64,000 nucleotides of DNA, taken from positions 528,164-592,163 of the forward strand of contig CAVYOH010000001.1 in the NCBI GenBank assembly GCA_963770085.1, read 5' to 3'. The translations under genes and the position numbers were made by a program. Of the stretch, positions 39,065 through 50,624 are shown one piece after another; position 1 is the first letter of the stretch; every line of letters begins with the position of its first letter. The notes under the pieces were generated by a model. It saw nothing but the letters and a program-made list of their open reading frames with translations. It was not told the DNA's origin and ran no database searches. The stretch comes from Terriglobia bacterium (GTDB lineage: Bacteria; Acidobacteriota; Terriglobia; Terriglobales; Acidobacteriaceae).

Positions 39065-40288
39065 TTATTTCTTCTTCGCCAGCAATCCAGACATCGCCCA
39101 GATTCCAAGCACCGGGCCAACGGCCATGCTGGCCATTGCCCACTGCCATCCCACGTGAGCAGCAATGCTCGCCATGGAGCGGATGGCAAAGGCCGTCAGC
39201 AAGAAGCCGAGAGCGACCTGGCAGGTGAGGGCCGTACCGACGTAACTCTTGTCTGAAACTTCACTGATGATGGTGGAGAACTGGGCAGAGTCGGCGATCA
39301 CGGCAATGCCCCAGATCAACGACAAACCTACCAACAACATGGGGTGGTGAAAGACCAGAGCCGCCACCAGACAGCAGATTGAACTGATCGCCATGGCGAT
39401 GATGGTGACCCAGGCCCGCTGGGAGACTCGCTCTTCGGCGCTCTGGTCTTGCAGGCGATCGCTGGCGACGCCGGCCCAGATGCATCCGATGGCGCCGATG
39501 CCGATGGCGAGAGCCGCATAGGCCTCATACTTCGAGCGCGACCAGCCGGCAGAAGCGGCGAAGATCACGGCAATCCATCCCCACATGCTGTAAAGCTCCC
39601 ACATGTGGCCGAGATAGCCGAGGTTGGCCAGTCGCAAACGCCGGTTGCGGACAATCTCCAGCATTTGAGTGGGATCGAAGCGTGATTGCGGCATGGCATA
39701 AGGCCCCTCATTCACGCCGAACAAGACGATGAACGCTCCGAGGACCGCCTGCATACTTCCCAGAAGCACTACGTTGCGCCATGAGATCGCGCCTAAAGAG
39801 TTGACGGCATGAGGTAATGCCGAACCCACAGTAAGCGCGCCGATCATGATGCCGAGAGCCAGACCGCGTCCGCGCTGAAACCATCCGGCAATGATCTTCA
39901 TGCCAACGGGATAAACGCCAGCCAGGAAGAAACCGGTTGCGCCGCGAAAGAGTATCGCCGGCACAGGATCCTGAGCAACAAAAGCAAACGCAGCATTCGA
40001 CGCGGCAGCGAGTAGCGCGGAAACGAAAAGAACGCGGATCGGGTTGAAGATGTCTGGAATATTGAATAGAGCAAAGAAGATGGCGCCGAGGGAAAAGCCG
40101 ATCTGCACGGCGATGGTCAGCCATGATCCAAGCGCCAACCCGGACTGCCATAGCTTTGTGACCTGAGGGAGCACTGCCGTGCCGGTAAACCACAATGACA
40201 TGGCCAGCAGTTCCGCGATCGAGAGCAAAAGAAGAACCCGCCGGGTGGAACTGCCACGGCGGGTCTGATCAATGCTGACGGTTGACAC
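39065..40288 (-). CDS. MFS transporter
   Basis: 407 aa with about 12 hydrophobic segments and an MFS-like loop FQRGRGLALG between TM2 and TM3. Confidence 0.8.
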   Translation of the reverse strand: MSTVSIDQTRRGSSTRRVLLLLSIAELLAMSLWFTGTAVLPQVTKLWQSGLALGSWLTIAVQIGFSLGAIFFALFNIPDIFNPIRVLFVSALLAAASNAAFAFVAQDPVPAILFRGATGFFLAGVYPVGMKIIAGWFQRGRGLALGIMIGALTVGSALPHAVNSLGAISWRNVVLLGSMQAVLGAFIVLFGVNEGPYAMPQSRFDPTQMLEIVRNRRLRLANLGYLGHMWELYSMWGWIAVIFAASAGWSRSKYEAYAALAIGIGAIGCIWAGVASDRLQDQSAEERVSQRAWVTIIAMAISSICCLVAALVFHHPMLLVGLSLIWGIAVIADSAQFSTIISEVSDKSYVGTALTCQVALGFLLTAFAIRSMASIAAHVGWQWAMASMAVGPVLGIWAMSGLLAKKK

Positions 40289-40854
40289 TAGCTCTTCATT
40301 TTCCTGCGTTCACAGGATGTAACGACGGCGCTGGGATCAACTGCGTCTTTGTCCGTATGCATCTCGGCGATCTTGCCGTCCTTGTCAATCAGGAAGGTCA
40401 CGCGACGAGCTGCTTTGTATTGCGGGTTGTAGATTCCGTACTGCTGCGTTACTTCGCCACCCCAATCACTAAGCAGCGGGAAGGTGACGCCGATTTTTTC
40501 TGCCCATGCGGCATTGCTGAACGTGCTGTCCATGCTTACACCCAGAACCTGGGTGTCTGCGGCTTCCAGCTTTTGTACATTCTGCTGGAACGCCTGCATT
40601 TCCTTGGTTCAACCACCGGTAAAGGCGAAGACATAAAACGCAAGAGCAACATTCTTTTTGCCGCGATAGTCGCTGAGTTTAACTTCTTTGCGGTTTTGAT
40701 CCAGCAGCTTGAAGTCAGGAGCCATTTCTCCGACTTTAAACTTTGGTTCAGGAGGGGCATCTTTCTTTTCGCCTTGCGCCCAGAGACGTGTAGCCGTCTG
40801 CTGAGCCACCAGAGCGAACATGCAAAGCATGATCACTAATGACAATTTCCGCAT
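40288..40854 (-). CDS. exported AhpE/BCP-like peroxiredoxin with in-frame TGA (candidate selenocysteine) at the peroxidatic position
   Basis: ORFs 40609..40911 and 40288..40599 are in the same frame, separated only by TGA 40609-40611 plus 3 codons. The joined product reads ...[22 protein letters not shown]...[13 protein letters not shown]...[12 protein letters not shown]. This is the Prx active-site context FTxxC(T/P)xE with U at the Cys position. AAGGAAAG before ATG 40854, then a signal peptide [19 protein letters not shown]. Confidence 0.65.
40538..40593 (-). other. candidate bacterial SECIS hairpins 3' of the in-frame UGA
   Basis: Hairpin 1 (40559-40593, +16 to +50 from UGA): GCG-UUCCAGC-[AGAAUGUACAAAA]-GCUGGAA-gc-CGC. 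Hairpin 2 (40538-40556, +53 to +71): perfect 8-bp stem ACACCCAG-[GUU]-CUGGGUGU. Confidence 0.4.
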
Positions 40855-41027
40855 GGTCACTTTCCTTATGCGATTCGTTGGACTTCGAATCGGTAATAAG
40901 CCTATATTCACTGCGCGATTAGGTCAACGCTTACTGAAGATCGCGTGCCGAATTGGGCTTTGATTCGCAAGAACACCGGTGCAAATACGTTCCCTGAATA
41001 AAGAAATGTAAAGAAGATGAGGCAATC

Positions 41028-41759
41028 ATGAAGTGGATGAGTGTGATGGCGGTAGTGGTTCTGGTTCTGGCATGTGCCGGACTCGCGCTGGGGCAAAATG
41101 CACCGACGTATGGAATTCAGCCGAACACTATTTACTCCGGTGCAGACGGGAAGTTTGAGTCGGCTCCAGATACGGCCGTTCTGCAAATGGAGATTGCGTC
41201 CCAACAGGACACATCAAAAGCCGCTTACGATAAGGTAGCCGCGGCCGCTACCAGCGTGCGCAACGTGTTACGCAATAACGGGATTGAACCCAAGACGGCG
41301 GAGATTGCGAACTATTCCGTTCAGCCCATCTACGACTGGAAAAATCCCAAACGCAAAGTGATCGCCTACCGAGTGGTCTCCAGCGTGAAGCTAAAGACCC
41401 ATGACTTCAACAAGATAGGTGCGCTCACGGAACAGCTGGCCGCCATTGATGAGGCGTCTAACCAGTCGGTTGACTACACTCTGGAAGATATTGAACAGGC
41501 CAAAGCCAAAGCATCTGAAGATGCCTTGAAGAAAGCGCGGACTCAGGCAAACGCGATTGCAGTGGCGGGTGGAAGAGTGCTCGGTGAGCTGGTATACGCT
41601 TCCGTGGATGTGAATCAACAGCAGATTGTACCCATGATGATGCGGACGGCGGGCATGGCAAGAACGGCAGCAGCGGAAGCTGCTCCTCCGACTGCCGAGT
41701 TCACGCCGCAGACGGTAACTATTAACGCGCACGTGAATGCTTTGTTCGCGTTGAAATAA
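41028..41759 (+). CDS. SIMPL/DUF541 periplasmic protein
   Basis: Signal peptide. Pattern ...VLQMEIASQQDTSKAAYDKVAAA...YSVQPIYDW...AYRVVSSVKLK, typical of SIMPL-domain (26-kDa periplasmic antigen-like) proteins. Confidence 0.7.
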   Translation: MKWMSVMAVVVLVLACAGLALGQNAPTYGIQPNTIYSGADGKFESAPDTAVLQMEIASQQDTSKAAYDKVAAAATSVRNVLRNNGIEPKTAEIANYSVQPIYDWKNPKRKVIAYRVVSSVKLKTHDFNKIGALTEQLAAIDEASNQSVDYTLEDIEQAKAKASEDALKKARTQANAIAVAGGRVLGELVYASVDVNQQQIVPMMMRTAGMARTAAAEAAPPTAEFTPQTVTINAHVNALFALK

Positions 41760-42099: not shown

Positions 42100-42327
42100 T
42101 CAGACCAGCTGAACCTTTTCTCGCAGATCAATTCCCGCCCGCCTGAGGATCGAAGCAATCTCCCCATCGTTCAATCTGGTAGCGTCATATTCCACGCGGA
42201 TGGTCTTTTCCTTCTCGTCAAAGTTGATCTTGCGGACGCCATAGACTTCCCAGGCGTTGTTCAAGGCCATCATCTGTTTTTCGCCTGGCGGCATTCCGTA
42301 TCTGAAAACCACATCCAATAAAGTCAT
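42100..42327 (-). CDS. small hypothetical protein divergent from csoR-copA
   Basis: 75 aa with GAGGAA just before the ATG. No Cys and no metal motif. Function unknown. Confidence 0.5.
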   Translation of the reverse strand: MTLLDVVFRYGMPPGEKQMMALNNAWEVYGVRKINFDEKEKTIRVEYDATRLNDGEIASILRRAGIDLREKVQLV

Positions 42328-45517: not shown

Positions 45518-46219
45518 TTATTTGCTCGCCGAAGTGCTGGGAGCAAAGCTGACAGCTTGTGCCGTGTACAGATCCGGCAGGGTCTTCTGCAGATGATCGA
45601 TCTTCGGCATATCGTTGATGGCGATATACGGCTGGTTCGGATGCTGCTTTAGATAGTCCTGGTGATAGGCTTCCGCCGGGTAAAAGCCTTTGAGCGGCGT
45701 TAGCTGTGTGACGATAGGCGCATCGAATACTTTCGCGTGGTTGAGTTGATCGATGTAGGCCTGCGCAATGCGTTTCTGCTCGTCGTCACCGTAGAAAATT
45801 ACGGAACGATATTGCGTGCCATCATCCGGTCCCTGACGGTTCAGCTCGGTGGGGTCGTGCGCCACGGAGAAGAAAACCTTCAAGAGCTGTCCCAGTGAAA
45901 CTTTGGACGGATCGTAAACGATCTTCACTGACTCCGCGTGTCCGGTGCTTCCGGAGCTTACGGTTTCATATTCCGCCGTATTGGCCGCTCCGCCTGAATA
46001 GCCCGAGGTCACTGAAGTCACGCCCTTCACGTGCTGGTATACACCTTGCACGCCCCAGAAACATCCGCCGCCCAAAACCAGTGTGGCCGTACCGCTGGTT
46101 TTAGCCAGCGGCGTGTCCACTGCAGGATCAGGAACACGGACAGCGGCCCGGGAGGAACTGCAAGCCGCAACCAGAGCGAGGCTGAAAATAGCGAGACTGC
46201 GAAAGAGATTCTTAAACAT
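45518..46219 (-). CDS. msrA: peptide-methionine (S)-S-oxide reductase MsrA, lipoprotein-type signal
   Basis: Lipobox LVAACSS. Catalytic GGGCFWG motif. Confidence 0.9.
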   Translation of the reverse strand: MFKNLFRSLAIFSLALVAACSSSRAAVRVPDPAVDTPLAKTSGTATLVLGGGCFWGVQGVYQHVKGVTSVTSGYSGGAANTAEYETVSSGSTGHAESVKIVYDPSKVSLGQLLKVFFSVAHDPTELNRQGPDDGTQYRSVIFYGDDEQKRIAQAYIDQLNHAKVFDAPIVTQLTPLKGFYPAEAYHQDYLKQHPNQPYIAINDMPKIDHLQKTLPDLYTAQAVSFAPSTSASK

Positions 46220-46228
46220 GTGCCTCCT

Positions 46229-46843
46229 TCAGGCGTGCTTGATGAAATTCAGTGAGGCGGAGTTCATGCAATAGCGAAGACCGGTTGGTTTGGGCCCATC
46301 GTCAAAGACATGGCCAAGATGCGCGTCACAGCGATGGCAGGAAACGGCGTTACGCTGCATGCCAAAGGAGCGGTCACTGCTGGTGGAAACATTTTCTTCC
46401 GCGATTGGCTGATAGAAGCTGGGCCAGCCAGTGCCGGATTCAAATTTGGTGGCAGAATCGAACAAAGCCGTACCGCAGCATACGCAGCGATAGAGACCTT
46501 TATCATGTTCGTTCCAGTATTTGCCGGTGAAAGCCATTTCGGTATCGTCATGGCGTGTGATGTCAAAGGCGTTGGGCGTGAGTTGTTTGCTCCATTCAGC
46601 TTCGCTCTTGCTTATCTTGGGAACCTTTACGGTGCCTTTGCGTTCGCCGGAATCGGAAAATTCTACGATGGTAACTTCCTGAGGCGTGGATGTTGACGCC
46701 TCTGCGGATTGCATTTCGTCTGTATGAGTTTTGCGCATGGAAAAAATGTATATACCTCCTCCGATCACCAAAGCAGAACCGAGAAATGCCCGGCGTGTGA
46801 CTTTGCCGGAATCGGCAGTGCTCGATTTGGGATCGGTAATCAT
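46229..46843 (-). CDS. msrB: peptide-methionine (R)-S-oxide reductase MsrB with twin-arginine-like signal/anchor
   Basis: TRRAFLGSALVIGGG N-terminus. Two CxxC zinc pairs (CVCCG, CHRCD). Catalytic RYCMNS. Confidence 0.9.
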   Translation of the reverse strand: MITDPKSSTADSGKVTRRAFLGSALVIGGGIYIFSMRKTHTDEMQSAEASTSTPQEVTIVEFSDSGERKGTVKVPKISKSEAEWSKQLTPNAFDITRHDDTEMAFTGKYWNEHDKGLYRCVCCGTALFDSATKFESGTGWPSFYQPIAEENVSTSSDRSFGMQRNAVSCHRCDAHLGHVFDDGPKPTGLRYCMNSASLNFIKHA

Positions 46844-50138: not shown

Positions 50139-50624
50139 CTACAGCTTATTGATATAGTCCACGAATTCGCGACTTTCCCAGTGTTGCGGGCCACTCAGCT
50201 TGCGGCGAACTTTGAAGTCACGGTCGATGATGAAAGTCTCGGGCTGGCCCGTGGTGCGATAGAGGGCGGCGGTGTCGGCAGATTCATCGCGAACGGTGAG
50301 GAAATCAATTTTGTGGCGTAAAAGGAATTCATGGTACGCGGCATCACTCTTGTCCGTGCTCACAGCCAGGACCACAGCATTCTGCCCAAGCTTATGCTGG
50401 AATTCGGCCAAAGAAGGCATCTCTTCAATGCAGGGTGCACACCAGGTGGTCCAGAAATTCAGGACAATGACTTTGCCTTTGAAGTCATGCAATGAAACAG
50501 TTTTATCCGAGTCTTTTACGGTGAAGTCCTTGGCCGGGCTACCCACCAGACCAGGGTTGGGTGAATCTGTGCACGCGCACAGCAGCAGCGGCAGGGCCAA
50601 TAGACATAGTCGCAGGGGTTTCAC
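50139..50624 (-). CDS. TlpA-family thiol:disulfide oxidoreductase lipoprotein
   Basis: Lipobox LLLCAC. Thioredoxin motif WTTWCAPCIEEMP. Confidence 0.85.
   Translation of the reverse strand: MKPLRLCLLALPLLLCACTDSPNPGLVGSPAKDFTVKDSDKTVSLHDFKGKVIVLNFWTTWCAPCIEEMPSLAEFQHKLGQNAVVLAVSTDKSDAAYHEFLLRHKIDFLTVRDESADTAALYRTTGQPETFIIDRDFKVRRKLSGPQHWESREFVDYINKL

Follow-up and report, generated by a model that had tools for sequence, protein, structure and literature searches.

The stretch of DNA considered here, referred to throughout as the window, comprises 64,000 nucleotides (nt) of contig CAVYOH010000001.1 from a Terriglobia bacterium (assembly GCA_963770085.1), and its positions 40288-40854 on the minus strand very probably constitute one gene (we put the probability at about 0.92), encoding an AhpE-like peroxiredoxin in which the peroxidatic residue would be selenocysteine (Sec), specified by the UGA at 40609-40611. 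A preliminary description of the window had proposed that two minus-strand open reading frames (ORFs), 40609..40911 and 40288..40599, are the halves of a single exported peroxiredoxin which standard annotation would report as two fragments, and existing gene calls do cut the gene into products of 81 and 103 amino acids (aa). The sequence and its translation bear out that the two ORFs lie in the same frame, separated by TGA (40611..40609) and the three sense codons ACC AAG GAA, directly after which the second ORF opens with ATG. The likely start of the whole gene is the ATG at 40854, with AAGGAAAG before it, and the same read-through ORF is also found in 60 species.

When Cys is put at the TGA, the 188-residue product matches the Pfam AhpC-TSA profile (PF00578) in a single stretch running across the TGA, which covers profile positions 1-123 of 124 (E = 2e-39) and scores 134.7 bits vs a curated cut-off of 26. 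Its best match in the Protein Data Bank (PDB) is AhpE of M. tuberculosis (Rv2238c), with E = 6e-27 over residues 38-166, and the TGA is aligned with the peroxidatic Cys45 of AhpE, the Cys in 'AFTGIC'. The Thr-x-x-Cys/Sec and the Arg that mark a peroxiredoxin active site are present as T79-G-G-U82 and R151, both aligned with the active site of AhpE, and the Pro of the usual PxxxTxxC or PxxxTxxU motif is Val or Ile in this clade. The earlier claims that read-through yields a full-length protein of the AhpE type, and that the TGA stands at the catalytic Cys position, are therefore well founded, the latter also because Cys homologues carry their Cys at the same column, as described below.

The relatives compared were 60 orthologous loci of different GTDB species, taken from a scan of one genome per GTDB species and nearly all of them Terriglobia metagenome-assembled genomes (MAGs); the nearest locus lies on a 1.07-Mb contig of MAG MFD04967.bin.1.53 and is 99% identical. 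TGA occupies the codon in 60/60 of these loci, and it is also kept in the more distant forms L077, L078 and L080. In each of the 60 orthologues the read-through frame closes at an equivalent stop, the aligned parts measure 149-151 codons and no further stop or frameshift occurs, and thus the additional disabling mutations that the preliminary description had named as possible counter-evidence are found in none of them. Mean pairwise amino-acid identity among the orthologues is 0.80 upstream of the TGA vs 0.79 downstream, which indicates that purifying selection acts equally on both halves of the gene. Nineteen contigs from separate ENA, JGI and Logan samples carry a C-terminal fragment of 103 aa identical to that of the window; the split into 81 + 103 aa recurs in the ten places listed for this fragment, bar one contig that is cut within the N-terminal part, and all eight of the independent metagenome contigs read that bear it have TGA. 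In addition, dozens of different fragments, 103-105 aa long and 75-98% identical, came out of a protein search, and hence the split of the gene is itself conserved.

These observations bear directly on the explanation that the gene is a pseudogene, or that an assembly or sequencing error is involved, a TGC or TGT Cys codon having mutated to TGA or been misread as such. TGA is one base away from TGC, and the close homologue P0001 (locus L072) does have TGC, on a contig with a coverage of 0.95x. However, a TGA that is constant across all 60 species, in short-read and at least some apparently long-read assemblies, and again in 8/8 contigs bearing the identical fragment, within a gene that has no secondary stops or frameshifts and whose two halves are equally conserved, effectively refutes this explanation, which we consider extremely unlikely; judged from its sequence, the split gene is neither a pseudogene nor a sequencing error. 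Other TGA-split genes were also looked for in the window, where a scan gave 65 candidates, none of those examined, this gene apart, resembling a true split gene (no Pfam scan of the candidates was made). Orthologues at 65-75% identity occur at L012, L013, L014, L018 and L032, on contigs binned as Limnocylindria, Actinomycetota, Udaeobacter or Patescibacteria; the neighbours found for L012 and L013 are SIMPL and MFS genes of Terriglobia type, which suggests mis-binning, and not horizontal transfer.

Full-length homologues retrieved by protein search are about 45-65% identical to the read-through product. An alignment of orthologues had been proposed as a check for Cys versus TGA at this column, and its outcome is clear: all orthologues have TGA, and twelve full-length homologues (P0001, P0006, P0012, P0017, P0038, P0053, P0061, P0065, P0081, P0082, P0087 and P0099) have Cys, the Cys codon being verified in DNA for L071-L074. 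Ten JGI gene calls (P0002, P0003, P0007, P0010, P0013, P0015, P0050, P0062, P0094 and P0095) show Trp at the TGA column. In the three Trp products checked, P0015, P0050 and P0095 (the loci concerned are among L077-L080), the codon in the DNA is TGA and table 11 does not yield the products, so their Trp is a gene-call artefact; a TGA=Trp code was evidently used to call genes on these contigs, and this masks the selenoprotein in another way than the split does. Among the Cys forms, P0001 (L072 254-805; 64% identity) has TGC at the Sec position and both downstream hairpins intact, and represents either a recent Sec-to-Cys conversion with a fossil selenocysteine insertion sequence (SECIS) or, at the coverage given above, a base-call error. 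The 250-aa call P0012 contains a whole Cys-peroxiredoxin joined by a linker to the N-terminal half of another peroxiredoxin, which stops exactly at ...FTGG; here a Cys form and a TGA form would share one frame, either in tandem or as a fusion.

The ten Trp calls could be taken to mean that UGA is read as a standard amino acid, whether by genome-wide reassignment (code 4 or 25, giving Trp or Gly) or by read-through of the near-cognate or suppressor kind, and such a reading would also agree with the fact that no Sec machinery was seen in the window or in the fetched flanks. However, TGA is the stop of 12 of the 34 long ORFs in the window, from which it follows that it is not reassigned in this genome, and it is the stop codon of the orthologous peroxiredoxin gene in L017, L020 and L045; the Trp products that were checked are artefacts, as stated above. 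Moreover, the codon lies at the peroxidatic position, where only Cys or Sec supports peroxiredoxin catalysis, and it is directly followed by a conserved RNA structure, the signature of SelB-dependent decoding. Decoding of this UGA as a standard amino acid is therefore judged very unlikely.

Gene callers predict two products, and one may ask whether these could form a split peroxiredoxin, composed of an exported N-fragment of 81 aa and a C-fragment of 103 aa whose start would be the ATG at 40599, which lies 9 nt past the TGA and has AAGGAA before it in the window. Since AAGGAA abuts the ATG, however, there is no Shine-Dalgarno spacer for the C-fragment, and most orthologues have AAGCAG or AAGCAA instead. 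The C-fragment, being without a signal peptide, would also reside in another compartment than the N-fragment, and the catalytic residue itself would be missing, all of which makes a split enzyme hardly credible.

The preliminary description had reported two hairpins in the mRNA after the UGA, and the RNA does fold as described, with stems, loops and positions accurately given (Table 1; the U of UGA is counted as 1). A 101-nt segment folds at -35.8 kcal/mol, vs -26.6 +/- 3.2 kcal/mol for shuffled sequences (z = -2.9), only 1/200 shuffles being as stable. In an alignment of 54 distinct sequences, each 84 nt from the TGA onward, RNAalifold pairs columns 21-27 with 43-49 in hairpin 1 and columns 56-63 with 67-74 in hairpin 2. 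The absence of a conserved hairpin from TGA orthologues had been foreseen as a possible objection; instead, both hairpins are conserved across the 54 sequences, and with the structure kept fixed 94% of cells pair, vs at most 47% when the partners are slid. Pairing amounts to about 92% of cells in hairpin 1 and 97.7% in hairpin 2. Four base pairs vary on both sides, most clearly pair 63/67 (40 sequences with G-C, 13 with A-U and 1 with G-U), where the change arises from synonymous CAG to CAA and CUG to UUG.

Synonymous variation leads to the same region. Counting codons along the aligned part of the orthologues, the mean synonymous heterozygosity is 0.27 for codons 39-77 vs 0.50 elsewhere (Mann-Whitney p = 8e-8); it is 0.05-0.2 near codons 40-52, stays low until about codon 77 and is 0.45-0.6 elsewhere. 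Within the structure, the values are at most 0.03 for the stem codons F51, Q52, L58 and E59 and 0.07 for Thr63 (ACC), vs 0.27 to 0.68 for the loop codons of hairpin 1, with L55 at 0.68, and 0.75 for the variable loop codon V65. The region 3' of the UGA is under constraint at the RNA level, its stems being frozen and its loops free. Synonymous sites are also near-invariant at 40596-40626 on the minus strand (aligned codons 39-46), outside both stems, in a stretch that begins four to five codons before the UGA (GGU GGU) and extends as far as hairpin 1; this suggests that, besides the hairpins, the sequence context may constrain UGA decoding. A mini-hairpin with the UGA in its loop (UGGU/ACCA) was considered as a general feature and rejected, as the AGC (Ser) and L025 variants disrupt it. 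As regards other forms, the distant Cys forms L071, L073 and L074 have lost hairpin 2 and kept hairpin 1 in part, and both hairpins persist in the close Cys form L072 and in the TGA forms L078 and L080, which are more distant.

According to a published model, a bacterial SECIS has a loop of 3-9 nt with a G within the first two loop positions, a spacing of 16-37 nt between UGA and loop, and a minimum free energy (MFE) of -7.5 kcal/mol or lower (PMC13188914). Hairpin 1 fits this consensus in its spacing (25 nt), its stem (7-8 bp) and its mean MFE (-16.5 kcal/mol), whereas its loop, which has 13-15 nt or forms a mini-stem loop that does not begin with G, departs from it in all 54 sequences. Hairpin 2 fits in its stem (8 bp), its mean MFE (-11.4 kcal/mol) and its loop, which is GUN in 53/54 sequences, whereas its spacing of 60 nt does not fit. 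Thus, the earlier statement that hairpin 1 lies at about the distance known from the E. coli fdhF SECIS holds as far as the spacing goes, but the loop falls outside the published consensus. A search of 40400-40750 with Rfam at a permissive threshold returned only a chance match to a CRISPR repeat model (E = 8), and no SECIS-like match. The divergent orthologue L077 has neither hairpin, and carries at the position of hairpin 1 a textbook SECIS that follows all four rules, with a 9-bp stem, a bulged U, a GGC loop and a spacing of 23 nt. Because of this positional homology, hairpin 1 is more likely to be the SECIS and is favoured as the candidate over hairpin 2. A bipartite SECIS can also be envisaged, in which hairpin 2, with its 8-bp stem and a GUN triloop following the G[G/U] rule, would bind SelB, and hairpin 1 would act as a structured spacer. 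With hairpin 1 and its lower stem (nt 14-54) folded, the 60-nt path between the UGA and the hairpin 2 loop would be reduced to about 19-20 unpaired or stacked nt, which is inside the range of 16-37 nt. We regard this arrangement as doubtful; if true, it would be a new bacterial SECIS architecture, used by an exported selenoenzyme with a wide distribution among soil Terriglobia.

A number of observations weigh against the decoding of the UGA as Sec. By tblastn, the E. coli SelA, SelB and SelD proteins (from NC_000913.3) gave no match in the window or in 76 fetched loci, and neither ARAGORN nor Rfam detected a tRNA-Sec in the window or in the 60 orthologous loci; the orthologue flanks searched for Sec machinery amount to about 1 Mb in total. 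The machinery is absent from A. capsulatum, Granulicella and T. roseus, and the trait is patchy in Acidobacteria (Peng et al. 2016). No NCBIfam model reaches its cut-off for the window protein. All four SECIS rules are followed by hairpin 1 in 0/54 sequences and by hairpin 2 likewise in 0/54, where the spacing fails. Finally, covariation is modest and the support for the hairpins is largely conservation, part of which reflects amino-acid conservation, as the hexamer TTCCAG (Phe-Gln) is complementary to CTGGAA (Leu-Glu).

Of the four standard in-silico criteria for a selenoprotein, three, namely a conserved TGA, Cys homologues and a conserved 3' RNA structure, appear to hold for the window gene, and the fourth is the presence of selA/selB/selC/selD in the same genome. 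For the clade of the window, the evidence on Sec machinery at the level of the lineage is favourable. SelD, SelA and SelB occur in Ca. Koribacter versatilis, which has 11 selenoproteins, and in Terriglobus saanensis, as well as in Acidobacteriaceae KBS 83, 89, 96 and TAA166 (Peng et al. 2016). When a protein search was seeded with the SelA of Solibacter usitatus (supplement of PMC1794560), the best 120 matches were filled by relatives 71-100% identical to the query, the few named ones among these 120 being labelled Bryobacteraceae or Acidobacteriia; by this search, SelA homologues are very common in Acidobacteriota metagenomes. In P0207 (L081), a SelA match of Mb scale, the tRNA beside selA is tRNA-Pro, not tRNA-Sec.

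Table 1. Features of the peroxiredoxin gene, its mRNA and neighbouring genes in the window
Feature	Coordinates	Strand	Remarks
Read-through coding sequence, putative Sec peroxiredoxin	40288..40854	-	188 codons; ATG 40854-40852, TAG 40290-40288; UGA = codon 82
Shine-Dalgarno-like AAGGAAAG	40860..40867	-	Read from sequence; AGGA core 40863-40866, 8 nt upstream of ATG
Predicted signal peptide, residues 1-26	40777..40854	-	N-terminal extension absent from cytoplasmic AhpE; cleavage site guessed
UGA codon 82, putative Sec	40609..40611	-	Peroxidatic position of T79-G-G-U82 (TxxU) motif
Hairpin 1	40558..40598	-	nt +14 to +54; upper stem UUCCAGC/GCUGGAA 22-28/42-48, 13-nt loop AGAAUGUACAAAA, short lower stem
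Hairpin 2	40538..40556	-	nt +56 to +74; 8-bp stem ACACCCAG/CUGGGUGU 56-63/67-74, GUU triloop
Arg151 codon, active-site arginine of the peroxiredoxin fold	40402..40404	-	Invariant alignment column; aligns with Arg of 'IANRGTF' in AhpE
Cys181 codon, candidate resolving cysteine	40312..40314	-	C-terminal tail (SCERRK); invariant in 60/60 Sec forms
MFS transporter gene	39065..40288	-	Pfam MFS_1; GTG start overlaps peroxiredoxin stop (TAGTG)
SIMPL-family exported protein gene	41028..41759	+	Pfam SIMPL; divergent from peroxiredoxin
MsrA	45518-46219	-	Lipoprotein-type signal (…LALVAAC)
MsrB	46229-46843	-	Twin-arginine motif (TRRAFLG), Tat-type signal
TlpA-like thioredoxin (CxxC) lipoprotein	50139-50624	-	WCAPC motif

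The enzyme is likely to be exported, to judge from its N-terminal extension. The signal peptide that had been claimed for it is recognizable as a basic N-terminus followed by a hydrophobic core, a pattern of signal-peptide type which recurs in 59/60 orthologues, and the Cys forms also bear a signal-peptide-like N-terminus. At the other end of the protein, Cys181 is still at least 90% conserved once the Cys forms are counted, and plausibly it is the resolving cysteine. In the mechanism that we propose, the mRNA downstream of the UGA would fold during translation into the conserved two-hairpin module, which would act as a bacterial SECIS and recruit SelB-GTP-Sec-tRNA(Sec), such that the UGA would be decoded as Sec and not as termination. 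The product would be a precursor with an N-terminal signal peptide, and the mature enzyme would act outside the cytoplasm. There, the selenolate of U82, activated by T79 and R151, would reduce H2O2 or organic hydroperoxides and be converted to selenenic acid, which Cys181 would probably resolve as a selenenylsulfide. A periplasmic thiol-disulfide reductase would then reduce the selenenylsulfide, a candidate for this role being the TlpA-like lipoprotein encoded about 10 kb away.

The gene neighbourhood is in part conserved. The MFS gene, which is probably co-transcribed with the peroxiredoxin gene, stands immediately 3' of it in 34/60 species, with 70-96% amino-acid identity, and the whole order of divergent SIMPL, Sec-peroxiredoxin and MFS is found again in 34/60 species; CsoR and CopA are nearby in about 20 species. 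The SIMPL, MsrA/MsrB and CopA neighbours mentioned in the preliminary description are present as claimed, and together with the TlpA-like protein and the Sec-peroxiredoxin they look like an envelope redox-repair and copper-stress island. A 75-aa ORF (MTLLDVVFRYGMPPGEKQMMALNNAWEVYGVRK...) at 42100-42327 on the minus strand, with no Pfam match on record, is always near CsoR/CopA genes, and its amino-acid identity of 83-96% over 23 species is unusually strong for a small unknown protein. At L055 3053-3147 (minus strand), about 2.5 kb from the peroxiredoxin gene, ARAGORN calls a 'tRNA-Lys (ctt)' of 95 nt, an unusual length for tRNA-Lys, with its anticodon at position 38.

Peroxiredoxins with a TxxU motif are an established family of bacterial selenoproteins, of which PrxU of Eubacterium acidaminophilum has been verified experimentally; the family's listed size rose from 12 members in 2006 to 91 proteins from 78 organisms in 2016. 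The preliminary description was correct in stating that Sec-containing proteins of this kind are already known, and therefore the novelty of the window gene is lower. Like the members of the PrxU/Sec-peroxiredoxin family, the window protein has the AhpC/TSA fold (PF00578), with Sec presumably in place of the peroxidatic Cys in T-x-x-U, Cys homologues and a candidate SECIS-type hairpin directly 3' of the UGA. It differs from them in apparently belonging to an AhpE-like branch, in its predicted N-terminal signal peptide, in a C-terminal tail with an invariant Cys, in the Val or Ile that replaces the Pro of PxxxTxxU, and in the two conserved hairpins of its downstream RNA; with the PrxU equivalog model (NCBIfam NF040737) it scores 87.5 bits vs a cut-off of 270. 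AhpE of M. tuberculosis, a 1-Cys enzyme, shares with it the active-site loop AFTG-x-C/U and the catalytic Arg, which align, but has Cys, no signal peptide and not the 20-residue C-terminal extension that bears Cys181. The AhpE subfamily is made up of cytoplasmic 1-Cys enzymes that lack a resolving Cys; although AhpE is the best PDB match, the window clade adds a predicted signal peptide and a conserved C-terminal Cys.

The recoding element can likewise be compared with the SECIS/SelB system of E. coli fdhF, with which it has in common an in-frame UGA followed by a stable stem-loop in the coding sequence, the loop of hairpin 1 being 25 nt from the UGA. Unlike that of fdhF, the loop of hairpin 1 is 13-15 nt long and A-rich, not of the short G[G/U] type of the published consensus, and the hairpin with a GU loop, hairpin 2, lies 60 nt from the UGA. 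As regards recycling, PprX of Caulobacter crescentus is described as a cell-envelope peroxiredoxin reduced through the ScsB pathway (PMC3322552), and shows that a thiol peroxidase outside the cytoplasm can be regenerated by electrons passed through the periplasm. PprX differs from the window protein in being a Cys enzyme. TlpA is reportedly involved in the PprX/ScsB pathway; a link between the TlpA-like protein at 50139-50624 and the Sec-peroxiredoxin is conjecture.

The gene in the window is very probably an unannotated and widespread member of a known selenoprotein family, and its clade is set apart by the AhpE-like core, the predicted signal peptide, the C-terminal Cys and the putative two-hairpin recoding element. 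Current understanding is not overturned, since Sec-peroxiredoxins are among the commoner selenoprotein families of bacteria. Databases store this gene and more than a hundred related clusters either as pieces of 81 and 103-105 aa or with a Trp wrongly placed at the catalytic position, and a curated model with a translation exception would mend these split or false-Trp entries. The two-hairpin element is a well-sampled natural case outside the bacterial SECIS consensus, and could help in defining the alternative SECIS classes that are mentioned in reviews. For the organisms themselves, at least 60 species of soil Terriglobia appear to be selenium-dependent for peroxide defence in their envelope, and the availability of selenium in soil would thereby be tied to the fitness of a dominant soil phylum.

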